Positions 20,114-56,156 of a DNA stretch of 64,000 nucleotides are shown piece after piece. Below the pieces are notes generated by a model, which was not told where the DNA came from, did no database searches, and saw nothing but the letters and a program-made list of their open reading frames with translations. Position 1 is the first letter of the stretch. Every line of letters starts with the position of its first letter. Made by a program: the position numbers and the translations under genes. Origin of the DNA: a phage. Location: the sequence record PZ347775.1. One strand, written 5' to 3'.

Positions 20114-20764
20114 TTATTTTTCCTTTCTTATGAAGTTTTCTATCATATGTCTATAGCAGATATTAGGATAACCTGCCTTGACAGCTATTTTATTAAATTT
20201 TGTGCGCTTAGGTCTATTATTATAAACCCATAATTCATAAAGCGCATCATAACTATTCCATATTTCTCCTCGCCTAGGATTTGGTAAACCGTATCGAGGC
20301 GAATTTTTACCGCTAAATCTTCCTTTTCGGGCTTTACTCATATTAGCCTTGGCTTCATCGGATATAATTTTACCTTTATGAGCTAGACGCATTTTGGCTT
20401 TAGTTTCTTCTGGGGTCTTTTTGCCTTTAATCCATGACGGCTTGCCATATCTAGGATTATTTTCACCCGAGAAAAGAACAGAGTTTTGGATTTTAAGAGT
20501 TTCTATTAATCTACTTGTTAATTTAACACCTTTATTATATCGCATTAAATTTACAGCATAATGCAATCCTCTCACATCTGGATATATTTTAGTTAATAAT
20601 CTATGAGCTATAAAATGCTCACGCGCAGTTAACTCAACAAGATTGTTTTTGTCATCTGCTCCTCCTATACATCTAGGAATTATATGATGGCGTTCTTTAT
20701 ATCCGCCAAGATGCCGGCATTTAGCTTTTGTAATTAAAGCCGAGTAAATTTTTTGGTAATTCAC
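20114..20764 (-). CDS. free-standing HNH homing endonuclease with NUMOD-like DNA-binding repeats
   Basis: N-terminal His-Me finger ERHHIIPRCIGGADDKNNLVELTAREHFIAH; repeated basic K-G-K modules; GTG or nearby start with AAGGA SD. Confidence 0.8.
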   Translation of the reverse strand: MNYQKIYSALITKAKCRHLGGYKERHHIIPRCIGGADDKNNLVELTAREHFIAHRLLTKIYPDVRGLHYAVNLMRYNKGVKLTSRLIETLKIQNSVLFSGENNPRYGKPSWIKGKKTPEETKAKMRLAHKGKIISDEAKANMSKARKGRFSGKNSPRYGLPNPRRGEIWNSYDALYELWVYNNRPKRTKFNKIAVKAGYPNICYRHMIENFIRKEK

Positions 20765-20834
20765 ATATATCCTTTCAATTCATTGGTTAGTAGATTAATT
20801 ATACAATAAATATATAAAGCAATAAGGAGGATAT

Positions 20835-21035
20835 ATGGTACAAAAATTAATGGCACTTGTTAATGCCATCAAAGGTAATAAAAAACGTATAGCTTTTACT
20901 ATTTCTGCTATGATAGGAATTTTACTTTGGAATTTTGTTTTATCGCCAGTTGCTATTGCTCATGGCGTTAGTATTCCAGTAATTACTCTTGATACATTCG
21001 TAGATTTAGCATTTGCTTTAGTTGGGTTAATTTAA
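20835..21035 (+). CDS. 66-aa small membrane protein on the opposite strand
   Basis: Strong SD AAGGAGG 4 nt before ATG at 20835; predicted TM helix IAFTISAMIGILLWNFVLSPVAIA; only convincing plus-strand gene in window. Confidence 0.55.
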   Translation: MVQKLMALVNAIKGNKKRIAFTISAMIGILLWNFVLSPVAIAHGVSIPVITLDTFVDLAFALVGLI

Positions 21036-22060
21036 ATCTTAGCATATTTAGATAGCCGCATTTTAGCCATCAACCCTTGGGCAATATTATTTTTCATATA
21101 TTCCATAATTTGTTCAGGGGTTGCACCTTCCTTTCTAATCATATCATTAACATCTTTTGATTTCCAGGGAGATTTGTCCCAAAACATAACCCTTTCTCCT
21201 GCATCAACTAATTTAGTCATTCGTTTAATAGTGTCAGGATGACGAGGTTCATTATCTAAAACCCATACACGTCTATCTTTAAATGGAACAATTTCTAGGT
21301 CTAATTGACCACCCGTAATAGCTATACCATTTTCAATAAAAAGCGAATCTATAGGTCCTTCTAGAACATATACATCACCATCTTTAACCCGTTCAACACC
21401 ATAGATTTTTGTTGCCTCAGGATAAGCTTTGATGGTGATATATTTTTGGGGAGCATCTTTCTTTAATGCACGCCCTTGAAAAGACTCAGCTTTTCCATTA
21501 GCATTATAAATTGGAATAACAAGACGAGGCTCAGGTATTTCCTTTTTGTATGTTCCTGGTGCTATACTATTAACTAATTTAGGCCATTCGGTTGTAAACC
21601 AAAGATATTTCCATTTGTCCTTTGGAATACAACGAGCTTTTACGTATTTTATAATTGGATGGTCTTCCGCCAGTTTATCTAATCTAACACATGACGGAAG
21701 AGATTTAATTATTTTCTTCTCAGGTTGTTTAGGAAGTTCTTTAGGTTTTTCTACTGGACGACTTTTACCTTTTTCTTTTCTTATTTCAAAGATATACTCA
21801 CGATATAAATCGGGTTCAAACTCCTTTAAATATATTCCGATTGGTGCATGATAGTTGCAGTTATAACAATGAATATTTCCTTCATTATTATCGCCATAAT
21901 ACCATCCACGGGCTTTATTTTGGTCGGTTTTTGAATCTCCACAAACAGGGCATCTAAACCGCAATTTAAAAGTTGAACTATTATTTACTTGTGTGAATTT
22001 AGGTAAATGAGCTAATGCACGATATGCAAACTCATTATCAATCCAAGGTATTGATGACAT
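21032..22060 (-). CDS. 61: gp61 DNA primase
   Basis: 342-aa ORF; N-terminal zinc ribbon CPVCGDS...CYNC and Toprim core; T4 gp61 length. Confidence 0.93.
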   Translation of the reverse strand: MSSIPWIDNEFAYRALAHLPKFTQVNNSSTFKLRFRCPVCGDSKTDQNKARGWYYGDNNEGNIHCYNCNYHAPIGIYLKEFEPDLYREYIFEIRKEKGKSRPVEKPKELPKQPEKKIIKSLPSCVRLDKLAEDHPIIKYVKARCIPKDKWKYLWFTTEWPKLVNSIAPGTYKKEIPEPRLVIPIYNANGKAESFQGRALKKDAPQKYITIKAYPEATKIYGVERVKDGDVYVLEGPIDSLFIENGIAITGGQLDLEIVPFKDRRVWVLDNEPRHPDTIKRMTKLVDAGERVMFWDKSPWKSKDVNDMIRKEGATPEQIMEYMKNNIAQGLMAKMRLSKYAKI

Positions 22061-22062
22061 TT

Positions 22063-22227
22063 TTACTCTTCTTTTTCTTTAGATTCCTCTTTTTTCTTTT
22101 TAGGAATCTGTTCAGGACCTTTATTTACTACAGCGCCTGATGTTGTTCCAGTGGAGATATTTTCAGGATTACCACCTGAATCTCCAGCTACCATATCTTC
22201 TTTGATAAATTCTTTATATGTTTTCAT
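22063..22227 (-). CDS. hypothetical protein (54 aa, 61.1 position)
   Basis: ORF below track cutoff: MKTYKEFIKEDMVAGDSGGNPENISTGTTSGAVVNKGPEQIPKKKKEESKEKEE. Confidence 0.5.
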   Translation of the reverse strand: MKTYKEFIKEDMVAGDSGGNPENISTGTTSGAVVNKGPEQIPKKKKEESKEKEE

Positions 22228-22228
22228 A

Positions 22229-22855
22229 TTAACCTCTATTCATAAAAGCATTAAAAATTTGGTCATCAATAGAAACATTCACTTTAGACTGTTTTTCTGA
22301 TGGTAATTCATATCCACATATTACAATTTTGTGATCAATATCAAAATACACAGAAGCAATATGATTAATGATGTTTTCAGTAAAGTCTAAATCAACATCA
22401 ATATCTTTTTGACCACAGCCCAAAGGATAAATAATGCGAGTAATTCGATTATCTTTAACAAAGATTCCACCGACATACTCTGTGCTGCGTTTAAAGTCTA
22501 CACGCCGACGAAATGAAAAATATTCAGGCTCTTTATGAGCTCGGCTCATAGGACACAACGAGTAACTAGAATAAGAAATGTCAAATCCTACGCCTTCAAT
22601 ATGAGCCAAATTATCATGATTAAACCAATTATAATCGTACGCCAAGTCCATTAGATTATAATATGTAAAAGGCACCGGATTAACGTCATTAGTCACAAGC
22701 ATGTAATTAGCAACTGCTATAATTTCATTGTTTTTAACGAATACAAACCGTGATTGATGCGAATGACCTGGACCCGCGTTTTCACGATTAATGATATAAC
22801 ACTGGGCACCTTTATATTTGTATGTATCTTTGCACTTGTGCATTTGGTAAAGCAT
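22229..22855 (-). CDS. hypothetical protein (208 aa), 61.2 position (AdfA-like anti-DarT candidate by synteny)
   Basis: Size and position match T4 61.2; function inferred only from literature on homologous locus. Confidence 0.55.
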   Translation of the reverse strand: MLYQMHKCKDTYKYKGAQCYIINRENAGPGHSHQSRFVFVKNNEIIAVANYMLVTNDVNPVPFTYYNLMDLAYDYNWFNHDNLAHIEGVGFDISYSSYSLCPMSRAHKEPEYFSFRRRVDFKRSTEYVGGIFVKDNRITRIIYPLGCGQKDIDVDLDFTENIINHIASVYFDIDHKIVICGYELPSEKQSKVNVSIDDQIFNAFMNRG

Positions 22856-23148
22856 TATTCACCTACCACTTCAGCGACGATATTTTTATTATTAAAGTTT
22901 TTATCGCAATATAGAACATAATTATACTGCATTACACCACCAGACTTAAGCTGTTTTTGCACTTCAGCTTTCATTTCAGGACGATCACGCTCAACGATAT
23001 TCATAATATCTGCTTCAATTTGAGTTTCAACTTCAGTCTGATCTGCAGTCATAGACCACTCACACAAATCTTTATCATATCCTGCCATAGCAGGCTGAGC
23101 AGCGCAAGAAGATAAAGCAAAAATTGCAGCAAAGATAAATTTTTTCAT
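22855..23148 (-). CDS. sp: Spackle-like periplasmic protein (superinfection exclusion / lysozyme inhibitor)
   Basis: 97-aa ORF with signal peptide MKKFIFAAIFALSSCAAQPAMA; position of T4 sp. Confidence 0.7.
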   Translation of the reverse strand: MKKFIFAAIFALSSCAAQPAMAGYDKDLCEWSMTADQTEVETQIEADIMNIVERDRPEMKAEVQKQLKSGGVMQYNYVLYCDKNFNNKNIVAEVVGE

Positions 23149-23251
23149 GATAATCTCCTCAGTAGTTTATGTTTATAGTATCTCAATTTTCAACAAAAGT
23201 AAACACTAGTAGAAGCAAACAGACAAATTACAATAATTGGTGATTTCAGTT

Positions 23252-23431
23252 TCATTCTTCTCCTCCATGTTGATGAACATATTCTTTTTCAAGTCTAGAG
23301 CACAAGTTTTCATATTCAACTAATAAAAATGAATCAAGTGCGTTATTTCTATGCTGACACCGTTCTTGTAAAGAATCCATCTCTGAACGTTGTTCTTGTG
23401 TTAATAATTGATAACCTGATACTTTAGACAT
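23252..23431 (-). CDS. hypothetical protein (59 aa)
   Basis: ATG after GGAGAACAAA cassette and perfect early promoter. Confidence 0.5.
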   Translation of the reverse strand: MSKVSGYQLLTQEQRSEMDSLQERCQHRNNALDSFLLVEYENLCSRLEKEYVHQHGGEE

Positions 23432-23467
23432 TTTGTTCTCCATTTACTCGTTTGTTTTGATAGGTCT

Positions 23468-23496
23468 ATAATAACATGTTTAAAACAAAAGTAAAC
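23468..23496 (-). promoter_or_regulatory. T4-type early promoter
   Basis: -35 GTTTAC (23491-23496), 17-nt spacer, -10 TATTAT (23468-23473). Confidence 0.5.
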
Positions 23497-23750
23497 TATT
23501 TTATTTCCTCAAGTTCGTTAATCAATAAAAGTTCTCTGACGCTAAAAATAAAGAAAAATGTGTTCCCATCAACCAGAGCATGACCGCTAATAGAACACCC
23601 TCTGCGGAATTTAGAAACTTCACAATCTAGAACTGTAAAGGGTTTTAATCCTATGACTTTAGCTGTGCGTCTATTCAGTTCACAACCACTCGCGAATTTT
23701 TCCAAATCTTCTTCTGATTTAAACTGATATTCTCTATTAACTAGCATCAT
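23496..23750 (-). CDS. hypothetical protein (84 aa)
   Basis: ORF with early promoter upstream. Confidence 0.5.
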   Translation of the reverse strand: MMLVNREYQFKSEEDLEKFASGCELNRRTAKVIGLKPFTVLDCEVSKFRRGCSISGHALVDGNTFFFIFSVRELLLINELEEIK

Positions 23751-23781
23751 TTTCTTTTCTCCGCGATTAGCTGATAGAATT

Positions 23782-23811
23782 ACTATAACACAACTCTATC
23801 AGCTTGTAAAC
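23782..23811 (-). promoter_or_regulatory. T4-type early promoter
   Basis: -35 GTTTAC (23806-23811), 18 nt, -10 TATAGT (23782-23787); inverted repeat agctgatag/ctatcagct flanks -10. Confidence 0.5.
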
Positions 23812-23813
23812 TA

Positions 23814-24113
23814 CTATTTTAAAACTTCTGTATAATCACATGTTACAAACTGTTTCTCTAACTTGACGATTTTACGAAAGTATCTTTTGCATTGGCGAAT
23901 CTGCCGCTTTGTAGGGCGCACAGCAAACTTAATAAATTCCACTCGACCAAATGGAGGGCTTTCTTCTGCTGGAATATCTAATACCAATTCCCACGTATCT
24001 GCGATAAGTGCTTTGAATTGAGTATTTTTCCTGACGTTATACGGAGTAGGTTTAAATAAAACAATATGCATATTATCCTCGGCAATCCACTTCACATACT
24101 TTCTTGTCATCAA
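23814..24113 (-). CDS. hypothetical protein (99 aa)
   Basis: ORF between 61 and 41. Confidence 0.5.
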   Translation of the reverse strand: MMTRKYVKWIAEDNMHIVLFKPTPYNVRKNTQFKALIADTWELVLDIPAEESPPFGRVEFIKFAVRPTKRQIRQCKRYFRKIVKLEKQFVTCDYTEVLK

Positions 24114-24255
24114 TGAAAGCTTTAACTAATGCTTTATTAACTTCAGCATATTGAGTAGTAGCCCATTGAACGTCATCTTTCATCATTGTGATTTCTTTAG
24201 TAAACATGCTTTCATTCTTAAACCACCCCATAAAAACTACTTTTACCAATTCCAT
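24073..24255 (-). CDS. hypothetical protein (60 aa)
   Basis: ORF with early promoter upstream. Confidence 0.45.
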   Translation of the reverse strand: MELVKVVFMGWFKNESMFTKEITMMKDDVQWATTQYAEVNKALVKAFIDDKKVCEVDCRG

Positions 24256-24284
24256 AAAAATCTCCTCATTTAACCAACAAGACT

Positions 24285-24314
24285 ACTATACCATAGTCTT
24301 GTCGGCTTGTAAAC
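24285..24314 (-). promoter_or_regulatory. T4-type early promoter
   Basis: -35 GTTTAC (24309-24314), 18 nt, -10 TATAGT (24285-24290); inverted repeat around -10. Confidence 0.45.
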
Positions 24315-25741
24315 TAAAATTTTAATTCATTTGCCAAAGCATCTAACTGAGCTCGAGCGGATTCGTTTCTTTGATAGCGATTCTGTTCAGCCTGAATCTG
24401 CTGTGAACCTGCTACTTCGTTCACTTCAGTTGGAGTAGAATCTTGTTCAATTTCTACCCATTTCTGATTTCCTTTTTGAACACCCATCAAAAACTTATTC
24501 CATTTATTCTTATCACCGTATCGTGATTTGATTTGCTTAATGAGTTGTTGTTCAGCAGCTGCTAACTCCTCGGTTTCAATGACCGCAAGCATAAAATCGG
24601 CTGTTGCTGGAAGACCGGCAGATTCTGCAATATCGCTCATGTTAACATCAGAAGAATCCCAAGCTTGTTTACCAACCTGTGCTGCAGTCCAAAGAACAGT
24701 TTCGGTTTCAACAGCCAGAGCACGCAATTCCTCTGCGATAGCTTTAACAGTTGTGTAACTATTTTCTGAATAAACTCTAATGCGGCAAGATTTACAAATA
24801 CCTAGATAGTCGACAATAATGATTGTTGGAACAAAATTCTTCTTGAGCTTCAATTCGTTTAAAAGCGATCGAAATGTATTAGCGTCTGCTCCACCAGTAG
24901 GATATTGCTTAACGATTAAACGACCGAGAGTAGATTTCTCACGCCATTTTTCCATCTTTCCTTTATACTCAGCGTAAGAAATATGCCCATCATCAATGTC
25001 ATCAAGAGAAACATCAAGCATATTAGCATCAATACGTTTAGCACAGACTTCTTCAGCCATTTCCATGGAAATGTAAAGAACATTATGTCCGAGCTGCAAA
25101 TAATCTGCTGCCAATGAACACAGACCTAATGACTTACCAACGTTAACACCAGCCATTAAAACGTTCAGTGTTCCAGTTTCAGCTCCGCCTTTAGTAATTT
25201 TATTTAGAATTTTGAGTTTAAATGGAACCTTACGAGCTTTATTCATATAAGATAGCCAACGTGCTTCGTAGTCATCCATCCAATCATGACCAACGTAACT
25301 ATCAAATGAAATTGATAATGCTTGGCGCATGATGTCAGGAATAGCACCTACATCCGGCATTTTCTTATTGCGTTTTTCCGGAGGAAGCTCAGCATTGGTT
25401 TGAATTTCAATTATTTTAGATGTGGCGTTAAACATCGCCCTTTGCTGAACATATTTTTCTGTTTCTTTTACTAACCAGCTGTGGTCTTCCGGAGAATCGG
25501 CCAGTTTTGAAATAAGTGTTTTTATACCAGAATATTCTGTTTCAGTAAATGAACTATTTTCTAACGCAACATTTAACGCATTAATAGATGGAACGCTATG
25601 ATACTCGTTAACATGAGATTTAATTAATTTGAATGTATTTTTAGCTGGACCACTTTCAAAATATTCTGAATCCATATATGGCCAAACTTTTGAAAAATAA
25701 GCTTGATCAAATATGAGATGAGAAAGAATAATTTCTACCAC
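24314..25741 (-). CDS. 41: gp41 replicative DNA helicase (DnaB-like)
   Basis: 475-aa ORF; Walker A GVNVGKS; T4 gp41 length and sequence. Confidence 0.95.
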   Translation of the reverse strand: MVEIILSHLIFDQAYFSKVWPYMDSEYFESGPAKNTFKLIKSHVNEYHSVPSINALNVALENSSFTETEYSGIKTLISKLADSPEDHSWLVKETEKYVQQRAMFNATSKIIEIQTNAELPPEKRNKKMPDVGAIPDIMRQALSISFDSYVGHDWMDDYEARWLSYMNKARKVPFKLKILNKITKGGAETGTLNVLMAGVNVGKSLGLCSLAADYLQLGHNVLYISMEMAEEVCAKRIDANMLDVSLDDIDDGHISYAEYKGKMEKWREKSTLGRLIVKQYPTGGADANTFRSLLNELKLKKNFVPTIIIVDYLGICKSCRIRVYSENSYTTVKAIAEELRALAVETETVLWTAAQVGKQAWDSSDVNMSDIAESAGLPATADFMLAVIETEELAAAEQQLIKQIKSRYGDKNKWNKFLMGVQKGNQKWVEIEQDSTPTEVNEVAGSQQIQAEQNRYQRNESARAQLDALANELKF

Positions 25742-25750
25742 ACTTACTCC

Positions 25751-26113
25751 TTAAAAGAATTTAAATTTTTTCTTTGACCTTTTATTAAATGCATCTTGTA
25801 GTTGCATTGTAATACATTTTTCTACATGAGGAGCTAACTCAGCTTTTCTTTCTTGGTCAAGAACAGCAAAGTCCATTACGACTTTTCCATCAACCCAATC
25901 TAATTTTGTCACATACACAATGTGTGTAGAACCGTCTTCTAGTTTAATGACAATCTCCTGGATAACATTTTCCATGGCAGATTTAATTATCTTAAGAGAT
26001 TCATTAAAAAGACGTTCTTTTCTTTCTTCTTCCCCCTCCGAAGAGGGGGATTCATCGATAATTTCTAGATCTAAATCTAAATCATCTTTATTCATTAAAT
26101 TCTTCCATATCAC
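25751..26113 (-). CDS. 40: gp40-position protein (120 aa)
   Basis: Synteny between uvsX and 41. Confidence 0.5.
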   Translation of the reverse strand: MIWKNLMNKDDLDLDLEIIDESPSSEGEEERKERLFNESLKIIKSAMENVIQEIVIKLEDGSTHIVYVTKLDWVDGKVVMDFAVLDQERKAELAPHVEKCITMQLQDAFNKRSKKKFKFF

Positions 26114-27269
26114 TTAACTGATCTAGGTCAGTTTCTAAATCAGCTGCTGATTTACTTTTACTTTCTGGAGATTTAAATTTTTCAACCTTTGAGTTAATCA
26201 ATTCATCAACTTCAGCTTCAACAATTTCATTACTATCAATAGCACCTAACTGATAAGCGCGTTTAATAGCATCTCGGAATGGTTGATGCTTAAATAAAGG
26301 ACCCCAGAATGTAGTGCAATTGGTATCTTTTGCACGCCAAGATTTTTCTTCGCGAATCATCTCGCCGGTTTCTTCATCAAGAAATTCACGAGCATACCAA
26401 CCATTTTTAGGTTTTACTACAAATCCTAGTTCAAGAGCCATATCTAACAATCCAGAATAAGGATCGATACCACCGTCAAATTTAACATCAATAAAGAATT
26501 TACTTTTTTCTTTGACGGTACGAGATTTTTCTACATTTAGAACAAATTGATACCCCTGAAGATCAGAACCATCTTTAATCTGACGCTTACCGATAATGAA
26601 TACAGTATCAGCTGAATACATTACGCCTGTACCACCTGTCATCACGGTTTTACTAAACATTTCAATTGTTTCAATTGTGTGGTTAACCGCAACACATGGA
26701 ATATTTTTAATGCTAAAATAAGGAGTAACAATACGGAATAATGACTTCAGTGATTTAGCACGAGTCATATCTGCCACAGATTTTTCATTCAAGGCATCTT
26801 CCGTTTCTTTCTTAGAAGCCATATTACCGATTGAGTCGATGAATACAATAACTTTTTCACCGCGCTCAATAGCTTCAAGCTGATTCACCATATCAATTTT
26901 CAGTTGTTCAACTGACTGGATTGGTGTATGAATTACTCGTTCCGGGTCAACTCCCATGGATCGCAAATAAGCTGGAGTAATACCAAATTCACTATCATAA
27001 AATAGACAAACCGCGTCAGGATATTTGTTCAAATACGCCGCAACCATAGTCAAAGACATATTTGATTTAAAGTGTTTAGAAGGACCTGCAAAAATGGTTA
27101 AACCAGACTGCATACCACCATCAATCGCGCCGGAAATAGCGATATTGAGCATTGGGATTTTTGTACGGATTACATCCTTTTCATTAAAGAATTTAGATGT
27201 AGTCAGTTCAGCAGTCATTTTAGAAGTGGAAGCTTTAATCAAACGGGATTTTAAATCTGCAATAGACAT
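26088..27269 (-). CDS. uvsX: UvsX RecA-like recombinase
   Basis: 393-aa ORF MSIADLKSRLIKASTSKMTAELTTSKFFNEKDVIRTKIPMLNIAISG; T4 UvsX. Confidence 0.95.
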   Translation of the reverse strand: MSIADLKSRLIKASTSKMTAELTTSKFFNEKDVIRTKIPMLNIAISGAIDGGMQSGLTIFAGPSKHFKSNMSLTMVAAYLNKYPDAVCLFYDSEFGITPAYLRSMGVDPERVIHTPIQSVEQLKIDMVNQLEAIERGEKVIVFIDSIGNMASKKETEDALNEKSVADMTRAKSLKSLFRIVTPYFSIKNIPCVAVNHTIETIEMFSKTVMTGGTGVMYSADTVFIIGKRQIKDGSDLQGYQFVLNVEKSRTVKEKSKFFIDVKFDGGIDPYSGLLDMALELGFVVKPKNGWYAREFLDEETGEMIREEKSWRAKDTNCTTFWGPLFKHQPFRDAIKRAYQLGAIDSNEIVEAEVDELINSKVEKFKSPESKSKSAADLETDLDQLSDMEEFNE

Positions 27270-27322
27270 TCATTTTTTCCATAGGCATCATTATATTTTC
27301 CTCACTGGTTAAAGATAGAGTA

Positions 27323-27350
27323 ATTATAACACAATAAATTTAGGCATTAA
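27323..27350 (-). promoter_or_regulatory. candidate middle promoter for uvsX (MotA-box-like TGCCTAA plus TATAAT)
   Basis: Minus-strand ttaaTGCCTAAatttattgtgtTATAAT, 11-nt gap; one mismatch to TGCTT core. Confidence 0.35.
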
Positions 27351-28195
27351 TCAACCGCTATTGGATGAATAGCATTAAACTTATGAAACGCTTCTGATTT
27401 TTCTTTGCGTGAAACACACATGCGAAGAACCTTTAATGGCTCGTCTTCTTCACCTAATGATTTTCGTTTTTCAATATTAGAAGTTTTCCAACGAGCTTGC
27501 TCTGGAAACTCTCTATTGATTTGCTCAAGAGCTCTATTATGTTTTGAATTACTACGAATTGAACTACATCCACCGGGGGCTTGTGCTTTTCCAGATACAA
27601 CTAGATATTTGAACAAGGCCAAATGCGGATAACCTTGATTAATTAAATTGAGAAATGCATACATATCTTCGCATAAATCAATTTTTCCATACCCAATTTG
27701 TTCTGTTGTAAGTTTTCCTAAATCATACCAGGTATTCGTGAATCCGTATGAATTTTCACGATAATTACCCCAAGATGAAGTAATTTTAAAAATAGGTAGA
27801 CGAGCATGACCATGATAATACCCGCAATCCATGGCATCTTCAACGTATTGAATCAATTCATAGAACTGTTCACGAGTTAACTGATTAATTTTATCTACGC
27901 AGCGACGATCATCTTTCTTTCGCATTGAACTCATACGAATAGTAGTATCATCATCAATCATCCAAATTCGTTGACCTGCATACATATCAGTAATTGCTTT
28001 ACGAGTTCCAGCAATTCCATTAACATCATCAGGAATAGTTATAATTTTAGCCCTAGACCCGTAAGCGTCATAATAAGCTTTTTCTTCATGTTCACGTACT
28101 ACAATATGAGGTTCATAATCAGTCGGAAACATATCAAGGGCAGAAACTGCCCCTACGCGTTGATAGCTTGGAATTACGAATTGAATCATTTCCAC
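27347..28195 (-). CDS. glycosyltransferase at the beta-gt locus (GT-A-like, DDD motif); candidate HMC-DNA glucosyl/gentiobiosyl transferase
   Basis: 282-aa ORF, IWMIDDDTTI DxD motif; does not resemble T4 beta-gt; occupies position between uvsX and 42. Confidence 0.6.
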   Translation of the reverse strand: MEMIQFVIPSYQRVGAVSALDMFPTDYEPHIVVREHEEKAYYDAYGSRAKIITIPDDVNGIAGTRKAITDMYAGQRIWMIDDDTTIRMSSMRKKDDRRCVDKINQLTREQFYELIQYVEDAMDCGYYHGHARLPIFKITSSWGNYRENSYGFTNTWYDLGKLTTEQIGYGKIDLCEDMYAFLNLINQGYPHLALFKYLVVSGKAQAPGGCSSIRSNSKHNRALEQINREFPEQARWKTSNIEKRKSLGEEDEPLKVLRMCVSRKEKSEAFHKFNAIHPIAVD

Positions 28196-28926: not shown

Positions 28927-29079
28927 TTAAACCTCAATTGATGCATTCATATTTAATTTGTAACAGTAATAAACTCCAACCTATAATAAGTGGCGGAATC
29001 ATAAGAGGAACTGTTACGCTATAGTATATACTTATTATAATCATTAAGATTAAAAGCAATACTGCTAAAATTTTGCTTT

Positions 29080-34080: not shown

Positions 34081-35040
34081 TCACTTCCACTGCATTTCGC
34101 ATGCTAATTGAATGAAAAGATATGCTAAATGTAATTCCGTATTAGCCGCAATTCCATGATACTGGTTATTTTCACCAACAATTTCATACATACGAATAAT
34201 ACTTTGCGGAGTTACGCGTGTATAGATTTCTTCGGCAAGTTTACCTACGAACCACGAATAATCAGCTGCATATTTTGGTGCTAAAGCTCTGAGTTGTTTA
34301 ACATCTTTATTTTTGAGAGACTCAAGAACATCATCAATAGCACCACGATCGTTAGTAACCAGTGATAAAATACCAGCATCCAAAACACCTTTAGATGAAT
34401 AACTATCGAGCTCACCAATAGTTTTACGAAAATCAGGAAAATTCTTTTTAACCAAAGCTGCTACAACTTTCATATCAGCTATAGCAATTCCTTCATGCTT
34501 ACAGATTTCAGTCAATCGACGAATCATCTGCTTCATCATTTCAATTTTATCTTCATCGGTCGGTTGACCGAACGTAATAACTCGGCAGCGTGACTGAAGC
34601 GGTTTAATAATACCATCAATATTGTTAGCAGTAATAATAATACTACAGTTTGAACTATAAGCTTCCATAAAGGAACGAAGATGTCGCTGAGACTCTGCTA
34701 ATCCTGAACGGTCAAATTCATCAATAACAATTACTTTTTGACGACCATCAAATGAAGCTGCACTAGCAAAATTAGTCAAAGGACCGCGAACGAAATCAAT
34801 TTTACAATCTGACCCATTCACAAACATCATATCAGCATTTACGTCATGACACAATGCTTTCGCTACGGTTGTTTTACCTGTTCCCGGAGAAGGAGAATGA
34901 AGAATAATATGTGGAATCTTACCTTTACTTGTAATAGATTTAAAGGTTTCTTTATCAAAGGCGGGAAGAATACATTCATCGATAGTAGATGGACGATATT
35001 TCTGTTCAAGAATGTGTTCTTTTTCATTTACAGTAATCAT
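34081..35040 (-). CDS. 44: gp44 clamp loader ATPase subunit
   Basis: 319 aa from [25 protein letters not shown]; Walker [11 protein letters not shown]; T4 gp44. Confidence 0.93.
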
Positions 35041-44710: not shown

Positions 44711-44712
44711 AA

Positions 44713-47794: not shown

Positions 47795-47843
47795 AATAAA
47801 ACCCTTACCTTGAATAGATAAGGGTATTTATTATTTTCAAGTA

Positions 47844-48308: not shown

Positions 48309-48413
48309 TTAAGTCATTTATCGTTGGTTCATTATATACTGTTTCTTCATCAGTGTAAACCGGTTCTTCCGGCTCTGGCTCTACTGTTTCCCATCTAGCC
48401 GCCCACCAAGGTT

Positions 48414-48734: not shown

Positions 48735-48744
48735 TTGTCACCAA

Positions 48745-48954
48745 TTAATTTCGCAATTTATTAAGTTCTTCATAATCAATCCAGGATTCTAATCCTGATG
48801 GCAAATCAGATTCAATTTCCCAAAGAAGCTCTTCAATTTTCTGAAGACGATCTAATTCTTCGGCTGGAATAGTAACCATTGACGGAGTTCTTGATACACT
48901 AATATCGTAAATCATATTTACCCCAGTTTGACCATGCAATCGCCATATTTCCAT
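48745..48954 (-). CDS. hypothetical protein (69 aa)
   Basis: ORF. Confidence 0.45.
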   Translation of the reverse strand: MEIWRLHGQTGVNMIYDISVSRTPSMVTIPAEELDRLQKIEELLWEIESDLPSGLESWIDYEELNKLRN

Positions 48955-49133
48955 TTAGAAATAGACTTTTCACCGTTAGAATAATAAACTTCGAGTTTAG
49001 CACGATTATTTTTAATTTGAATAACCTTTGCTGTCATCAAAGTTCCATACCCGTAATAAACTGCAACCTCATCACCTACATATACCGCGCTTCCGCGGTA
49101 GTCATGGATATAATCAGTTCCTTCGAGCATCAT
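48918..49133 (-). CDS. hypothetical protein (71 aa)
   Basis: ORF. Confidence 0.45.
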   Translation of the reverse strand: MMLEGTDYIHDYRGSAVYVGDEVAVYYGYGTLMTAKVIQIKNNRAKLEVYYSNGEKSISKWKYGDCMVKLG

Positions 49134-49393
49134 TTAAAGTATTCCCGCAATTGGTCAAATCCACCAATATGACTTCCATCAGGAGCAAATACTTGTGGCA
49201 TTGTCAAACCAATTTGAGTATCACGACCCAGTTTAGTTAGAAGCTCAGCGATTTTCTCATCATCAAAAACACCTTTTTCCGGCATAATATTGATAAATTC
49301 AAACGGCTGTTTCTTCACAGTCAAAAGACGTTTTGCATTATCGCAATACACACATTTATGGATGCTGCTATCATAACCATATACTTTAAACAT
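49130..49393 (-). CDS. nrdC: NrdC thioredoxin/glutaredoxin
   Basis: 87-aa ORF MFKVYGYDSSIHKCVYCDNAKRLL; CVYC redox motif; T4 NrdC. Confidence 0.92.
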   Translation of the reverse strand: MFKVYGYDSSIHKCVYCDNAKRLLTVKKQPFEFINIMPEKGVFDDEKIAELLTKLGRDTQIGLTMPQVFAPDGSHIGGFDQLREYFK

Positions 49394-49394
49394 A

Positions 49395-49637
49395 TTATTC
49401 CTTAATTCCTAGTACTTGTTTAAAAGTCTCGTCGTAATCAAGACTTTGACCTGTTTGTTCTTTATGTTTGTATATAATATCACTTACTTCTGATAGCATA
49501 TTTTTATATGAACGAGTTAAAGCAGATTTAAGCACGCTGTATCTATCAGGAAATTTACCATGTTCATTATAATACGCTATTGCTAATTCACGGACTGCCT
49601 TTTCAGCAATCTCCATATATTCTTTACGCTTTGTCAT
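49395..49637 (-). CDS. hypothetical protein (80 aa, nrdC.1 position)
   Basis: ATG MTKRKEY immediately after upstream stop (TAAAATG); track ORF extended. Confidence 0.5.
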
Positions 49638-49638
49638 T

Positions 49639-50028
49639 TTAATCCAAAATATTATTAGGCATTGGTTGAACACTCGCAAGTTCTTTAAAGAACTCAGTAG
49701 AGTCAGGTAATTTAACCATTTCCGGAGCATGCTTGCTAAATTTGTGTTTACAATGACGGCATTTATATTCAAGTTCCGGTTTACGCCAGTTAATCAATTG
49801 AACCTGTTCAGTACCGCATTCAGGACAATTAGGAACGTTTTTAGAAGCCCTTTCGCGACGTTCAACCATAGCCATAATAGCATCCCAGGCTGGAGGTTTA
49901 AAATCTAAATCGTCACAACCATGAATCTTTCCACGCATTTCTAAATCGTCTTCTTCACCAGCCATAATAATTTTAATTAGACTGGAATTACTTGAAGCTG
50001 CAATATCTTCTAATAGACGCTTTTTCAT
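49639..50028 (-). CDS. zinc-ribbon protein (129 aa)
   Basis: CPECGTE ... CRHCKH four-cysteine motif. Confidence 0.55.
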
Positions 50029-50954
50029 TTCAGTACCTCAATAGCATTACGTAAACCATTTGCTTTTGCATTAAGAGCTTTTAACAATTTAGTGTGTTCG
50101 GCAATTTGGGCTTCAACTTCAATCAAACGAGCATTGAGATATTCGCGTTCTTCGCTCAAGCTATCAACCTTTTCTACTTTAGGTTCTTTTACAACTGGCT
50201 TATATGTATTAGGGTTCTTCAGTTTAATTAGAATACGTGAACTGTATAACATTGAACCATTATTTTCGATTTCGTCATACATTTCTACTACGTCCATGAT
50301 TTTTAACATCATGCGGAGTTTATAAGATAACGAACGAATAGTTTTGTTGTGCTTATTAATTTCTCTAGCTGTCATGGTGCCGAGATTACGTGAGTAATAA
50401 TAAGGAACCTGGATATTAATTAATACTGATGAACCACCTGGCTTGTGTGTTACTTCATCAGCAATAACCCAGTCCTTAACATGAACTGTATTTGTACGGT
50501 CATCGCCCGCGGTAAATAGTTTACGAGCATGCTTAAAAAGCATATTCACTTGGTCATTGAAATGACAAGCAAATTTATCAGCAAATTTAGTTTCAGGAAT
50601 GGTAGATAACCAATCAGCCAAATGGGTCTTTTTAACATCGTTAACAATAGTAAATTCAACCAAATCAGTTATAGATGTCTCAGATTTAATAAAGCTCGGC
50701 TTCATAAAGTTTTTAATGTTATCGCGAGCTACAGTAGAAGATAACATACGAGAACGTTTAAACCATTCAAGCAAATTGCCTAACGAATAAGAATAAGCGT
50801 TTTGAGTATCTTTACAGATATGATTTTCCTGGCCAACATATTGAAGGAAATCACGAAGAATATTATTAATTACTGCTCTGTGTCCGATCTGATAATTACG
50901 GTGTTTAGTAATAAGACTGTCAAAATAATCAATATAATGTTTACGAGTTTTCAT
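50025..50954 (-). CDS. paralog family member 1 (309 aa) with C-terminal coiled coil
   Basis: Shares MTARE/YMDVV blocks and C-terminal heptad region with next three genes. Confidence 0.6.
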   Translation of the reverse strand: MKTRKHYIDYFDSLITKHRNYQIGHRAVINNILRDFLQYVGQENHICKDTQNAYSYSLGNLLEWFKRSRMLSSTVARDNIKNFMKPSFIKSETSITDLVEFTIVNDVKKTHLADWLSTIPETKFADKFACHFNDQVNMLFKHARKLFTAGDDRTNTVHVKDWVIADEVTHKPGGSSVLINIQVPYYYSRNLGTMTAREINKHNKTIRSLSYKLRMMLKIMDVVEMYDEIENNGSMLYSSRILIKLKNPNTYKPVVKEPKVEKVDSLSEEREYLNARLIEVEAQIAEHTKLLKALNAKANGLRNAIEVLK

Positions 50955-51006
50955 GTTCTTCTCACTTGGTTAATGATTTATACTCCGAGCCATCCTTGGC
51001 TTTAAA

Positions 51007-52008
51007 TTACTTAATTAACTGTAAAGCTTGTTCAAGACGATTCAGGCGATTAACAGATTCTTCCCAAATACTTTTAGCCTGCTCATATTCTTTCTGCGCT
51101 TTATTAGAAATTTCTAGAACTTCTTTATAAGCTTTTTCTAGTGCAATAACTTCTGGACGAATTTCTACCGGTTCAGGCGAATCGTCAAGATTATCCATTA
51201 GTTCCTCAAGGGTAGTTTCTTCTTTAGGAGTATTCACAATTTCTTCACATTTTTGTTGGTAAATTTCTTTATCAGTCGGTAAATAAGCACATTTCACTTC
51301 ACGAAGACTAACTACAATTTTATATCCTTCCCAACCGCATATATTCTTAAAAGGATACGTATGAATATTTTCTACTGTTTCCATACAAAGTAATGCGGTT
51401 TCTAATTGACGAGTTATAGTGCTAGCAATTGAGAAAAATTTATTAATGTTCTTTTGGTTAGTTTCTGGTGTAAAAAATCCATAATTCACAAAAATAGATA
51501 CTTTATTTTTATCAAGTTCATATTCTTTTACGATAATCATATCAGAAGCCAAAGGATGAATTTGACGATAATCGCCATAACATAATTTAGAAGCTGATTT
51601 TAGAATTTGCTTTTTGAAAAGTCTGAAATTACTAATCCAACGACGAGTAAAAATATTCTCAGGGTCTTCTTTATTATTAAGATGATAAGAATTAACATCA
51701 CCGAACCAATTATATCCTACTACATCTTTGGTTCGTTTAATTTCTTTCCCAAAATTACCAAGAATATCCCGATTAACCAAATATGAAAGAAGACGAGACT
51801 CTTTAAAGGTTTTCTTGATAACATCTTTATCTACACGACTAGAAATTTTACGAATTTCATGAATAAATTTAGTAGAAGAAACAATACCTGCATCAACACT
51901 ATTGAGCCATTGATTGATAATAGAAATAACGCTATTTTGACCAAACATCGGTATAGCTTTATCATCAATAACACTATTGAATGATTTGATATATTCGTTA
52001 CGAGTCAT
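51007..52008 (-). CDS. paralog family member 2 (333 aa) with C-terminal coiled coil
   Basis: ATG MTRNEY after GAGGAG SD; RRW...FKKQILKSASKL block shared with member 3. Confidence 0.6.
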   Translation of the reverse strand: MTRNEYIKSFNSVIDDKAIPMFGQNSVISIINQWLNSVDAGIVSSTKFIHEIRKISSRVDKDVIKKTFKESRLLSYLVNRDILGNFGKEIKRTKDVVGYNWFGDVNSYHLNNKEDPENIFTRRWISNFRLFKKQILKSASKLCYGDYRQIHPLASDMIIVKEYELDKNKVSIFVNYGFFTPETNQKNINKFFSIASTITRQLETALLCMETVENIHTYPFKNICGWEGYKIVVSLREVKCAYLPTDKEIYQQKCEEIVNTPKEETTLEELMDNLDDSPEPVEIRPEVIALEKAYKEVLEISNKAQKEYEQAKSIWEESVNRLNRLEQALQLIK

Positions 52009-52065
52009 ATTAATCTCCTCAGTAGAAAGTAAGAACATTATACCACATCCTTGTGGCAAAGTAAA

Positions 52066-53094
52066 CTAGTTCAGTGCATTTAGTGCATTGTTCAGTTTAG
52101 AACGTTGCTTCGTAAGATTTTTGACTTTTTCTTGAGCTTTTTCTAGTATCTTTTCAGCTTCTAGCACTTCATTAGTTGCTTTAACGAGTTCATCATCTAC
52201 TGCCTTGATAGACTTCTCAATCGCATCGGCATGCCATTTTTCAACAGGTTTAAGACTCGGATTTTCAACAGGAAGAAAATTCACTTTATTGAATTTCCAT
52301 GCATCCTTATTACCTGAACTATACATCCAAAATTTAGGATCGTTTGATGAGTAATTGGATAAATTTAAATTTAAGTTATCTTGTACTTCTTGCTTTTTCT
52401 CTTGTGGGACTTCGTCCTTTCTCAAAAAATCGTATTTAAATGAAACGATCATATCAAGTTCATATGTTGTTGTGTCTAATTTAAATCGCTCAAAACGAGG
52501 TAAAATCTTAGACTGAACTGCAGCAACAACGTCCATATACTTAAATGCTTCTGTCAACTGCGATTTAAGGCATTCGCAAATTGAAAGAGAATTTTTTGTA
52601 TTAGGTTTAAAGCTAATTCGTGCAGTTCTGTTATTTTCTTTTAATGGTCTTACTTCCATCTGAAGAGTATAACCATCAAATTTCAGGTTCTTTAAGTTAA
52701 TATCAGAACCTTTTAATCGACTCGCAGTTGATAAAATTTGCTTTAATTGTCTACGGAACAGAGCAATAAATCTCCATTCAATACGATAATGATTTGGATT
52801 GAAAAATCCAGATGATAAATCGACCTTACTTTGACCAACGCCTTGAACAAATAAAGGATTTTTATAATCAATAGTTTTACAGAAATCGGTGAGTTGCTCA
52901 CGAGCAGTCATTTGTGTAATATAACCCGCTTTACTAAAATTACGCACCCATTCACTGCTATTCGTATACTTAAAGTGATGAATAACACGATTAACTTTAT
53001 CAGGGTCTAAATTATTTTCACACAAAAATGTCATAACATCACGAGTATAGCTGGCGTTACGAACCATATCTTCAATTTGAGAACGAGTTTTCAT
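52066..53094 (-). CDS. paralog family member 3 (342 aa) with C-terminal coiled coil
   Basis: RIEWRFIALFRRQLKQILSTASRL and KYMDVV blocks; C-terminal coiled coil. Confidence 0.6.
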   Translation of the reverse strand: MKTRSQIEDMVRNASYTRDVMTFLCENNLDPDKVNRVIHHFKYTNSSEWVRNFSKAGYITQMTAREQLTDFCKTIDYKNPLFVQGVGQSKVDLSSGFFNPNHYRIEWRFIALFRRQLKQILSTASRLKGSDINLKNLKFDGYTLQMEVRPLKENNRTARISFKPNTKNSLSICECLKSQLTEAFKYMDVVAAVQSKILPRFERFKLDTTTYELDMIVSFKYDFLRKDEVPQEKKQEVQDNLNLNLSNYSSNDPKFWMYSSGNKDAWKFNKVNFLPVENPSLKPVEKWHADAIEKSIKAVDDELVKATNEVLEAEKILEKAQEKVKNLTKQRSKLNNALNALN

Positions 53095-53102
53095 GGTGTT
53101 CC

Positions 53103-54014
53103 TTAAGATTTAAGTAAATCGACAATTTTAATTAACTTTTCACGCTCAGATTTAGCTTTACTACTCAGTCCAGATAGTCTGAAAATTTCATCATCATATT
53201 GTTGAATAGAAATATTCAGCTCTTCAATCTGCTTATTAAAATAATCAATTTGTTCAGAATGTTTTTCGTTACTACGAACTGGTACAGGTTTTGTAGGCAA
53301 TGTAGTTGAACTGGATTCATCCGGGCGATAAATTAAAATACAACTTGAACCAATAGGGCATTTTGCACCAGATGAATATTCTAATGTTCCAGCTTCTTTT
53401 AAAACTTCAAAAGCTAAACAGAGATGATGTCCCATATTAACATAATCTGTAGAGTGAGCTCTGATGTAATAATCATCTCCACGAATACTAAATTTAAAGC
53501 ATTTAAGGTCTTCTGTATTATTGGTCTTAAAAATCATTTGTTTATCTAGACCTTTAGCTAATCGAGCGCCCAATGCTAATAATCGTCGTTGATTTTCCCA
53601 CAAATCCGCAATCATTTGATCGAATGATAATTTCGGCATTAGTCGACCATAAAGGTCATATCCTTTATTATAATTACGAAGAATTTCACTCGCATTAATA
53701 CGAGACAACGCTCCAATTTTATTAAGGGCTTTCATAATGCGATTAGATAAACTCATTCCAGACCCATTTGTTCGCTGTAAATGTTTTTCTAATCCAAAGC
53801 CAATATCAACTTTAAACTTATCTAAAATTTCGGCATGAACATCTCTGTCAATAACATTCAAATCCAAAGTTGGGTTAAATCTATGAAAAAATTTATCTGG
53901 CTCTCCACGACGAAATACAGTCCATTCATTCATCATTTTTTTATTAACTAAAGATTTAATTACTGCATTGACATTATTAATTGCTACTGACATATTTTCC
54001 TCACTCAATTTCAA
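53103..54014 (-). CDS. paralog family member 4 (303 aa) with C-terminal coiled coil
   Basis: Divergent member; ADLWENQRRLLALGARLAKGL block and C-terminal coiled coil. Confidence 0.55.
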   Translation of the reverse strand: MKLSEENMSVAINNVNAVIKSLVNKKMMNEWTVFRRGEPDKFFHRFNPTLDLNVIDRDVHAEILDKFKVDIGFGLEKHLQRTNGSGMSLSNRIMKALNKIGALSRINASEILRNYNKGYDLYGRLMPKLSFDQMIADLWENQRRLLALGARLAKGLDKQMIFKTNNTEDLKCFKFSIRGDDYYIRAHSTDYVNMGHHLCLAFEVLKEAGTLEYSSGAKCPIGSSCILIYRPDESSSTTLPTKPVPVRSNEKHSEQIDYFNKQIEELNISIQQYDDEIFRLSGLSSKAKSEREKLIKIVDLLKS

Positions 54015-54408
54015 TTTTACTAAATATACAGAATAAGATGGAACAGACTACATAAGCACCACACACAGATTGAACTAATACCATCCCAAAGAACCAAACA
54101 ATATTATCAAACAGTGTCTGTTTTACGTCGAAAGGACGTAAACTTACAGTAATATTATCACCTTTTTCTATTGAAGAATACATCTCTGGGGAAATATATT
54201 CACTAAATCTATAACCGTCTTTGAGTTCATATACGGCAATAAACGATAAACTAGACCCTTTTCCTTGTGTTCCTGTAATGGTATTAACTACAGTAACATC
54301 ATAATCTTTATAATGCATATAATCATTAATTGCGTAATAACCGTATGCAACTACTACACATAAACAGCATATCAATAAATTCAATCTTTTAATTATCAAC
54401 CGTTTCAT
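54001..54408 (-). CDS. membrane protein (135 aa)
   Basis: N- and C-terminal hydrophobic helices. Confidence 0.5.
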   Translation of the reverse strand: MKRLIIKRLNLLICCLCVVVAYGYYAINDYMHYKDYDVTVVNTITGTQGKGSSLSFIAVYELKDGYRFSEYISPEMYSSIEKGDNITVSLRPFDVKQTLFDNIVWFFGMVLVQSVCGAYVVCSILFCIFSKIEIE

Positions 54409-54463
54409 AATAATCTCAATTAAAATGGCTTAGAACCATTATACCATCCTTGGTATAAAGCGG

Positions 54464-54991
54464 TTATGCGAGTACCGTCTTTAACCGTTCTTCAAACTTC
54501 CGAAGAGTATTTTGGCGTTCAGCTCTTTGCTTTTTGTAAGTTTCAATACGCTCTGAAATGAGAGTGTATCGTTCATTTACTGATTCTTTCATAAAATCAG
54601 GAATTTCACGAGAAGCTTTAATCTCGTCAAATTTATCAATAACAGCTTGCTCTTCAGCAATTAAGTTATCATACATTAAAATATCTTTCTTGATAAACTC
54701 AATATCTTCTTGAGTTACACGAGATAACTTAGATGCTTTATCCTTTTTGTACTGTTCATTAGTATCACGAGACCAATGTAATGTACGATTTTTATTCGTA
54801 TTTTTGTAAATTTCGACAATACCAATCTCATCAATAATAACGATCCAATTCCAACGGGATTTGTAAATTTGTCCTCCATCAACAGTGATTTCACCTCCGA
54901 TTGAGATGTCGTTAAAGAACTTGCTTTGTGCTTCAGATTTAAATTTACCATCATTGTAATTTACCAAGTTGAAAATATCTTTAGCGTTCAT
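54464..54991 (-). CDS. hypothetical protein (175 aa)
   Basis: ATG after early promoter/SD module. Confidence 0.55.
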   Translation of the reverse strand: MNAKDIFNLVNYNDGKFKSEAQSKFFNDISIGGEITVDGGQIYKSRWNWIVIIDEIGIVEIYKNTNKNRTLHWSRDTNEQYKKDKASKLSRVTQEDIEFIKKDILMYDNLIAEEQAVIDKFDEIKASREIPDFMKESVNERYTLISERIETYKKQRAERQNTLRKFEERLKTVLA

Positions 54992-55019
54992 TTTCTGTTC
55001 CTCCGTAGTTGATAGTTGT

Positions 55020-55049
55020 ATAGTACCACAGAGGAACAGTCTTGTAAAC
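55020..55049 (-). promoter_or_regulatory. T4-type early promoter
   Basis: -35 GTTTAC (55044-55049), 18 nt, -10 TACTAT (55020-55025); same module as at 1907-1936. Confidence 0.5.
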
Positions 55050-55051
55050 CA

Positions 55052-55366
55052 CTAAAAGAAACTTCTTTCGCAATTTTTTCCACTGAACCATGCGCTCACT
55101 GCTTTCTTAGTCTCAGGAGCAGTGTTATCCATAAACCATTCAAAGGCAGCCTTTTTATGATTCTGGAGGGCTTCTCGGGCTTTAATCTGCTCACGGTCTA
55201 TTAACACTAACATATGAGCCTTTCTTGTCACCATGGGCTTCTTATGATTTTTTGAATACTCCCAGTCATTTGTCCATCGCATTGTCGTTGCGAACTGAAA
55301 TACAGCTTCTTTAATCTTAGTTTCGTAAATTTCACGAGCCTTTGAGTATAACATCACTACCTCCAT
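55052..55366 (-). CDS. hypothetical protein (104 aa)
   Basis: ORF. Confidence 0.5.
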   Translation of the reverse strand: MEVVMLYSKAREIYETKIKEAVFQFATTMRWTNDWEYSKNHKKPMVTRKAHMLVLIDREQIKAREALQNHKKAAFEWFMDNTAPETKKAVSAWFSGKNCERSFF

Positions 55367-55436
55367 TCACCAGTTTAATTCTAGTCATCTTTTTGATGGC
55401 AGTCCATATAATCTATTTCTGAACTGTCTTTTTGTC

Positions 55437-56156
55437 TTAGGATTCTTCTAAATGTCTTTTCTGAAAAGTTGATACCATACTACGATACGGTTCATTTGGA
55501 TACCCGTGTTTTATAGCTTCCTTTGTAAATTTTCTCCATCCATATTTAGTTTCTTTCCAAAGCTCGAATAATTCATCTTCATATTGCCATATAGTTAAAT
55601 GAGAACGCTTTGCAGCTTTAATTCCATTAATATGCTTTTCTTTTACTACAGGATTACTTAGTTTCTTTTTAATAATATTACTAACTTTTCTAACAAAAAC
55701 TGGGTCCTTATATCGTTGCGAAGTTTTTATTGAAGTGTTTAATTTAGCTTCCGGTGTGGATGTGACCTCTTTCATCTTTTTCTTCATATGCTGTATATGA
55801 TTAGGATTTTTCCATAAATTTATAGAATGCTTTTTGCATTTTATCCTAGTTTCATCTGCAACCTTTCCTCCTTCACCTCCGTATGACAGGTTAACACAGT
55901 TTTTTCCATATTTCAATTTACCTGCCATGATATATAATATTTCAGCTTGTACCATTTTATCATAATTATCAAAAACTTCTAAAACCGTTTTTGTTAATAT
56001 GTGGTCATTTGACACTTTTACACGTTCTATATAATTTCCACTACCAACATACGAATCATTGATGTTATTAGTTATATGTCGACCATAATAGTATTTCTTA
56101 ATACCTGTCTTTAAATTTAATATTTCAGTTTTATAGATAGTAAAATATTTTTTCAT
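55437..56156 (-). CDS. free-standing GIY-YIG (Seg-like) homing endonuclease
   Basis: N-terminal TIYKTEILNLKTGIKKYYYGRH ... SYVGSG; NUMOD-like repeats; C-terminal ELW...GYPN...YR module shared with the HNH endonuclease. Confidence 0.8.
   Translation of the reverse strand: MKKYFTIYKTEILNLKTGIKKYYYGRHITNNINDSYVGSGNYIERVKVSNDHILTKTVLEVFDNYDKMVQAEILYIMAGKLKYGKNCVNLSYGGEGGKVADETRIKCKKHSINLWKNPNHIQHMKKKMKEVTSTPEAKLNTSIKTSQRYKDPVFVRKVSNIIKKKLSNPVVKEKHINGIKAAKRSHLTIWQYEDELFELWKETKYGWRKFTKEAIKHGYPNEPYRSMVSTFQKRHLEES

Follow-up and report, generated by a model that had tools for sequence, protein, structure and literature searches.

A three-helix C-terminal module shared by HNH and GIY-YIG endonucleases in a T4-like coliphage

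Introduction

The modular design of homing endonucleases has been described in published reviews for both the GIY-YIG and the HNH family (PMC2988022, PMC2677866), and the phage members of both families are said to be built as 'beads on a string' (PMC2988022, PMC10448857). In I-TevI, which is encoded by an intron, a GIY-YIG nuclease is followed by a zinc finger, a NUMOD3 helix and a C-terminal helix-turn-helix (PF20987) (PMC2988022, PMC2330249), while I-HmuI combines NUMOD4 and an HNH_3 nuclease with a C-terminal NUMOD-like helix-turn-helix. Such small parts have been termed nuclease-associated modular DNA-binding domains (NUMODs; Sitbon and Pietrokovski, 2003, as quoted in PMC2677866, PMC1564403 and PMC3239194). 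Free-standing endonucleases are also found in phage T4, and two of its HNH proteins, MobE and MobA, have been reported to nick their targets (PMC2988022). Here we describe two endonuclease genes in a stretch of 64,000 nucleotides of phage DNA (sequence record PZ347775.1), which we call the window. One encodes an HNH protein of the Mob type and the other a GIY-YIG protein of the Seg type, and both proteins end in the same small domain, hereafter the module.

The window has a G+C content of 34.5%. T4-like coliphages of the RB32/RB51/T6 type are collinear with it, at 96-99% identity, and the source of the window is a T4-like coliphage. The two module-bearing proteins are the only relatives of T4 homing endonucleases encoded within it. 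An earlier note, made from the DNA sequence, had suggested that these endonucleases share a C-terminal DNA-binding domain that was exchanged within one genome. We find that the domain has indeed moved between the two nuclease families, and that the exchange is to be sought in the family at large.

The same C-terminal end on two unrelated nucleases

The peptides quoted in the earlier note are both encoded on the minus strand, at 20132-20251 and 55464-55583, and lie at the C-terminal ends of the two open reading frames (ORFs). When the complete proteins are compared by BLASTP, only the C-terminal ~44 residues align, with 21 of 44 positions identical (48%) and a composition-adjusted E-value of 9e-9; the similarity that had been noticed is thus borne out. 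A comparison with shuffled sequences had been proposed beforehand as the test by which the claim could be refuted. The Smith-Waterman score of the real pair is 95, and none of 20,000 shuffles reaches it (mean 21.9, standard deviation 4.3, maximum 51; z = 16.9). The catalytic domains are unrelated, as had also been claimed, one matching the Mob and the other the Seg proteins of T4. One homologous module therefore sits on two unrelated nuclease folds, which implies domain shuffling between the families.

At the DNA level, the longest match that the two module copies have in common is 9 nucleotides. The copies are 38% identical over the match columns of the module hidden Markov model (HMM), which is about the background of the family, and copy 2 ranks only 45th of 134 among the neighbours of copy 1, each copy having closer relatives elsewhere. 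Six-frame scanning of the window, both with single modules and with a profile of 90 sequences, recovered these two copies and no more.

A recurrent module family

A profile built from seven modules was searched against 1.84 billion representative proteins (E <= 1e-3) and returned 113 clusters, so that the shared segment proved to be a recurrent domain. Sorted with custom HMMs and motifs, these clusters comprise ~45 Seg-like GIY-YIG proteins, ~38 HNH proteins, 24 short fragments and three probable false positives, which upholds the earlier suggestion of domain exchange between nuclease families. Among the 110 carriers, Pfam recognises NUMOD3 in 33, an HNH-type domain in ~20 (one of them HNH_3) and GIY-YIG or SegE_GIY-YIG in 14. 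Two proteins illustrate both associations: one of Serratia phage LC53 combines a GIY-YIG domain over the Pfam cutoff with NUMOD3 and the module, and one of phage UGJNEcP4 an HNH domain over the cutoff with the module. Most instances of the module end at most six residues from the C-terminus, and the carriers hold one copy in 91 clusters, two in 15 and three in 4.

Three endonucleases of T4 itself belong to the family. The module HMM finds the same module in the HNH protein MobD (residues 197-251, E = 7e-24) and in the GIY-YIG protein SegA (residues 166-216, E = 1e-17). In SegF it detects a divergent copy by its first half (E = 1e-5), and the remaining 12 T4 endonucleases gave no match. Along its whole length, the window HNH protein can be aligned to MobD (35% identity), and its last NUMOD3 unit and module also match SegA (E = 2.5e-9). 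The similarity between MobD and the window GIY-YIG protein covers linker and module (E = 1.9e-4). The window proteins are not orthologues of MobD and SegA. Module identity is only about 35-45%, and the window genes sit between genes 56 and 61 and between nrdC.9 and nrdC.10, two places at which T4 lacks an endonuclease gene.

In a phage collection, a consensus module used as tblastn query matched 560 places in 376 records. The matches listed come from T4-like phages that infect Gammaproteobacteria, and a single genome holds up to five copies; the genome of vB_EcoM_005 has five module sites. In other T4-like phages, the module is found at unrelated loci (examples in Table 1), on either nuclease type and sometimes duplicated. 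A word-indexed protein search, in which three shared 5-mers are needed for a match, returned nothing with a two-module alignment as query and two proteins only with the full GIY-YIG protein.

Of the 120 best homologues of the HNH protein, the module is present in just 8, and at least seven of the others end in NUMOD1, an I-HmuI NUMOD-like domain or I-TevI_DNA-bd. The C-terminal position is therefore a slot that can be filled by alternative small domains. Similarly, P0037, a Mob-like HNH-NUMOD3 homologue of 277 residues, ends in I-TevI_DNA-bd (PF20987, E = 1.3e-10), from which we take the terminal domains to be interchangeable. P0037 is also, in its own right, a further case of domain sharing between GIY-YIG and HNH enzymes at the same terminal slot. 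The nearest neighbour of a module belongs to the same nuclease class in 61% of cases against 52% expected, which is close to random. We did not count exchange events from these neighbours, given how short the domain is and that the representatives had been clustered at 50% identity.

Several variants of the module were seen alongside these proteins. Tandem double modules are encoded in phage PHB13 (L006:643-1665, QBQ74113) and in vB_EcoM_005 (L005:474-1091, YP_010100441). Short ORFs that encode little besides the module are P0167 (52 residues), P0205 (65 residues) and P0131 (121 residues, two copies); these could be decayed endonuclease remnants, stand-alone DNA-binding proteins or truncated gene calls at contig ends. 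The HNH-NUMOD3 proteins P0110, P0115 and P0061 have only the first-helix half of the module (W..LY.LW..N.KP), followed by another conserved extension (F..GWVP..D.EW..F), and the two parts together may form a related larger domain.

Fold and identity of the module

The structure prediction that the earlier note had called for was made with AlphaFold2 on a 56-residue construct and a 90-sequence alignment. It gives a three-helix bundle (helices 7-21, 27-37 and 45-55) with a mean predicted local distance difference test (pLDDT) of 89.6. The family signature can be written as 'W-x-x-Y-D-E-L-Y-x-L-W ... F-R-x-x-A-V-x-x-G-Y-P-D-x-x-Y-x-x-M-V-x-x-F'. The hydrophobic core and the G-Y-P-D loop are kept across the family and the surface positions of helix 3 vary. 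The module carries a mean net charge of +3.4, with basic residues concentrated in the N-terminal arm and where helix 2 begins. The underlying pattern (W-x5-L-x3-W...F...GYP...Y..M..F) consists of rare aromatic residues, not of lysines.

The module matches none of the families that we compared it with. Scanned against Pfam and NCBIfam, by itself or as part of either protein, it was assigned to no family, and Pfam scans of 90 module sequences gave no consistent match to any family, including helix-turn-helix and NUMOD families; at E <= 1, none of the 90 sequences matched PF07453, PF22083 or PF20987. Aligned with hhalign to a NUMOD1/I-HmuI-like alignment, the module alignment obtained a probability of 0.3%. 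A sequence-profile search of the PDB returned nothing significant, the best hits being a VRR-NUC fragment (E = 0.26) and the Myb domain of TRF2 (E = 0.73), and a Foldseek search of the module model against the PDB was likewise without significant match. In the searchable literature, we found neither a description of the module nor a dissection of the DNA-binding parts of T4 SegA, SegF or MobD.

The two endonuclease genes

The HNH gene lies between gene 56 (dCTPase) and gene 61 (primase), in the place where T4 has dam. Its product matches PHROG 655 'homing endonuclease' (E = 1e-59) and, by BLASTP, T4 MobE (1.5e-36), MobD (2e-34), MobB (4e-20), MobC (5e-17) and MobA (9e-17). The N-terminal region aligns with all five T4 Mob proteins, and the motif HH(26-27)...N(40/41)...H(50) can be made out by eye. 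The earlier note had ascribed K-G-K-rich, NUMOD-like repeats to both endonucleases. This is correct for the HNH protein, in which Pfam NUMOD3 (PF07460) matches two stretches (E = 8e-7, 29.3 bits against a cutoff of 20.4) and a custom NUMOD3-unit HMM picks out EETKAKMRLAHKGKI and ISDEAKANMSKARKGR with 27.8 bits. Coverage of the HNH-gene region reaches 80% or more in only 32 of 719 related phage records.

The GIY-YIG gene is a clean insertion: compared with T4, 733 bp (55441-56173) replace 37 bp between nrdC.10 and nrdC.9, and the flanks are 97% identical to T4. It begins with an ATG that overlaps the stop codon of the nrdC.10-like gene upstream. At least 80% of the region is covered in only 67 of 744 related phage records; in relatives the gene is annotated RB32ORF093c, and in some records segE. 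Both genes are clean presence/absence insertions relative to T4, with the HNH gene taking the place of dam.

The GIY-YIG protein matches PHROG 314 (E = 1.8e-30) and T4 SegB, SegF, SegE, SegA, SegC and SegD. In a database of 15 sequences, an HMM of its GIY-YIG domain retrieved SegE, SegB, SegC, SegD, SegA and SegF at E = 4e-32 to 4e-26, I-TevII at 1e-5 and I-TevI at 3e-3, and no Mob protein. The residues Y8, Y23, G25, E72 and N89 are invariant or nearly so. Full-length BLASTP also links the protein to the Serratia phage LC53 protein (E = 2e-17), which passes both Pfam GIY-YIG models. AlphaFold2 models the full protein with a pLDDT of 94.7 and an N-terminal strand-strand-helix-strand-helix order, as expected for GIY-YIG. 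In a PDB profile search with the domain alignment, the best hit is 1ywl (E = 0.18, sub-threshold), a UPF0213 protein which we take to belong to the GIY-YIG superfamily.

Five Lys-rich repeats, each 17 residues long and of the form x-(N/D/T)-P-x4-K, make up the linker of this protein. They are modelled as the helices 101-116, 118-132, 135-150, 152-165 and 169-186, after which come the module helices 188-203, 207-216 and 225-238. Here the suggestion of NUMOD-like repeats fails: Pfam NUMOD3 gives no match in this linker and the custom unit HMM scores -3.0 bits, with 195 of 300 shuffles as good. The linker aligns in register with that of T4 MobD (z = 5.2, 2 of 5,000 shuffles), and the MobD linker is itself weakly NUMOD3-like (1 of 300 shuffles). 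By sequence comparison, then, the linker may be tied to NUMOD3 only indirectly, through MobD.

Table 1. Features of the two endonuclease genes in the window, and module loci in other phages
Feature	Location in the window	Strand	Basis or remark
Mob-type HNH homing endonuclease gene, free-standing	20114..20764	-	216-residue ORF, GTG start
HNH (His-Me finger) nuclease domain, about residues 1-100, motif ERHHIIPRCIGGADDKNNLVELTAREHFIAH	20465..20764	-	Pfam HNH below cutoff; alignment to T4 Mob proteins
Linker, two NUMOD3 units, about residues 101-163	20276..20464	-	Pfam NUMOD3; NUMOD3-unit HMM
Shared three-helix module, copy 1, residues 164-216, C-terminal	20117..20275	-	Module HMM, E = 1.6e-24 (six-frame scan)
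Seg-type GIY-YIG homing endonuclease gene, free-standing	55437..56156	-	239-residue ORF
GIY-YIG nuclease domain, about residues 1-97, with TIY8...YYG25, E72, N89	55866..56156	-	Family HMM
Linker, five 17-residue Lys-rich helical repeats, about residues 99-184	55605..55862	-	Repeat stack, model
Shared three-helix module, copy 2, residues 185-239, C-terminal	55440..55604	-	Module HMM, E = 3.2e-19 (six-frame scan)
Module locus, Aeromonas phage			Adjoins gp47
Module locus, Serratia phage			Between gp5 and gp6
Module loci, other phages			Adjoining topoisomerase or head genes

Discussion

We consider it likely that the two genes are free-standing homing endonuclease gene (HEG) cassettes, and that their common module is a distal DNA-binding anchor which, over evolutionary time, has been recombined, alone or together with the linker, onto HNH and GIY-YIG nucleases among T4-like phages. 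For the module-bearing enzymes we infer DNA binding, an anchoring role and homing activity from their architecture. In each protein, an N-terminal nuclease is followed by a basic helical linker, made of NUMOD3 units or of 17-residue repeats, and by a terminal domain of ~50 residues. With its basic N-terminal arm and helices 2 and 3, the module would hold the distal end of a long target site. The linker would follow the DNA, and cleavage by the nuclease would take place some way off, as it does in I-TevI and I-HmuI. A conserved hydrophobic core combined with a variable helix 3 surface could then let specificity diverge. The position of the module and the likeness to I-TevI and I-HmuI make it most likely that it serves a monomeric endonuclease as its distal DNA anchor.

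I-TevI is alike in overall plan: its GIY-YIG nuclease stands at the N-terminus and is joined by an extended linker to a small helical DNA-binding domain at the other end (PMC2988022, PMC2330249). Unlike I-TevI, the window proteins lack a zinc finger and are encoded by free-standing genes, and their module has no detectable sequence similarity to PF20987 or NUMOD1. I-HmuI resembles the HNH protein in being an HNH nuclease with a C-terminal helical DNA-binding tail, and one module-bearing cluster (P0183) has HNH_3; however, the HNH domain encoded in the window is a Mob-type one and not an HNH_3 domain with NUMOD4, and the module does not match PF22083. The module also differs from the NUMOD set in being neither NUMOD1, NUMOD3 nor NUMOD4 as these are modelled in Pfam.

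Some observations weigh against this reading. The family assignment of both nucleases rests on homology: the Pfam HNH match of the HNH protein (E = 0.0019, 18.8 bits) lies under the cutoff of 21.4 bits, and the GIY-YIG protein drew no Pfam match of any kind, GIY-YIG included, whether searched whole at E <= 1 or as its N-terminal 102 residues at E <= 10. A Foldseek search of the PDB with the extended full-length GIY-YIG model found no significant match and no GIY-YIG structures. In the module, the modelled loop between helices 2 and 3 has seven residues and is longer than the turn of a classical helix-turn-helix. Moreover, the acidic pair D13 and E14 is conserved and the GYPD loop is near-invariant, which could reflect a conserved ligand other than DNA. 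The module might thus be a protein-protein interaction or regulatory domain that dimerises, or that recruits a conserved recombination or replication component of T4-like phages. Such a role would suit the acidic pair and the GYPD loop, the restriction of the matches listed in the phage collection to T4-like phages, the occurrence of the module in enzymes at many different loci, which presumably have different targets, and the lack of a significant structural match to a specific DNA-binding family. We regard such a role as improbable.

A more serious contender, though still on the unlikely side, is that the module corresponds to the published NUMOD2 or to another described motif without a Pfam model, in which case the domain itself would not be new. 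The authors of the NUMOD work reportedly analysed the T4 Seg and Mob proteins, and by eye helix 2-helix 3 fits the classical helix-turn-helix pattern (Ala 5, Gly 9 and hydrophobic residues at 4, 10, 15 and 18). NUMOD2 has been described as helix-turn-helix-like and often present twice per protein (PMC3239194), and our module also occurs in tandem; yet the 90 module sequences did not consistently match a helix-turn-helix or NUMOD family, and hhalign separated the module from the NUMOD1/I-HmuI-like alignment. There was no Bacillus phage among the ten organism names that recur most in the consensus tblastn or among the 45 matches listed, a weak argument given that the phage that encodes I-Bth0305I is unconfirmed in the collection. 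Far less credible is a recent exchange within the window genome, whether the two endonuclease genes underwent gene conversion or arose by duplication. Recombination does occur in HEG-rich phage genomes (PMC10448857) and both copies lie in one 64-kb window, but the copies share no word longer than the 9 nucleotides, their identity is that of the family background, their neighbour rank is low and the same module is found in T4 MobD, SegA and more than 100 divergent clusters. We rejected recent intragenomic exchange on the dissimilarity of the DNA and the neighbour rank, and with it the part of the earlier note that placed the event in one genome. As for chance, or a composition effect in two Lys-rich proteins of a genome with 34% G+C, we give it next to no credence: the E-value is adjusted for composition, the shuffle control refutes it, a family profile recovers both copies at E <= 3e-19 and the conserved positions are aromatic. 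An anchor domain exchanged across the family remains our preferred explanation. The exchange is old, and the window copies represent two independent members of an old family spread across T4-like phages. One may go further and regard the module as an uncatalogued fifth kind of nuclease-associated modular DNA-binding domain, confined, on current evidence, to T4-like phages and swapped between Seg and Mob enzymes (SegA, SegF and MobD included), with arrays of one to three copies building new specificities; this we advance tentatively, leaning slightly against it.

Domain shuffling between GIY-YIG and HNH enzymes is already established, and in that respect our finding is real and well supported, and also ordinary. 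Because such modular reassortment is established, the current view of homing endonuclease evolution is unchanged. The only possible novelty may be the recognition of this particular domain, for which there is no Pfam model. In hundreds of endonucleases from T4-like phages, T4 SegA, SegF and MobD among them, Pfam assigns no domain to the C-terminal region. It is now possible to describe this region as a single homologous three-helix module whose boundary is defined, which fills a small annotation gap and provides a clear construct with which to study how these enzymes choose their targets. Parts of I-TevI are already used in engineered nucleases, and the module is possibly another small natural DNA-targeting unit for that purpose.

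Related loci and neighbouring genes

Module-encoding sequence without annotation was found in RB51 (34387-34539, H204) and in Shigella phage ESh34 (H216). Some endonuclease genes or remnants therefore go unannotated, since the records of these phages have no feature under the module sequence. In Escherichia phage UGJNEcP4 (Dhakavirus), the HNH-plus-module gene (L002:865-1647) lies between two coding sequences that are both annotated 'DNA helicase', so that a helicase gene appears to have been split by the insertion of an endonuclease gene.

Around the HNH gene of the window, T4 segF and dam are both missing from the gene 56 region. Gene 56 itself (dCTPase, 19594-20112) is only 75.7% identical to T4 gene 56 at the DNA level, while its flanks on the soc side (18812-19209) and on the gene 61 side (20824-22111) are 96-97% identical to T4. 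Gene 56 is thus a strongly diverged allele of an essential gene, adjoining endonuclease insertion sites. We take this divergence to resemble the situation of gene 56 in T2 and T4, which has been linked to SegF. Between the HNH gene and gene 61, on the opposite strand, lies an ORF for a hydrophobic protein of 66 residues (20835-21035, plus strand), annotated in relatives as hypothetical or 'phage protein'. Finally, record OR584013.1, 'Pseudomonas phage PsgM02F' (host Pseudomonas coronafaciens), is 96.7% identical to the HNH-gene region, and its host label is unexpected for a Tequatrovirus-like sequence.

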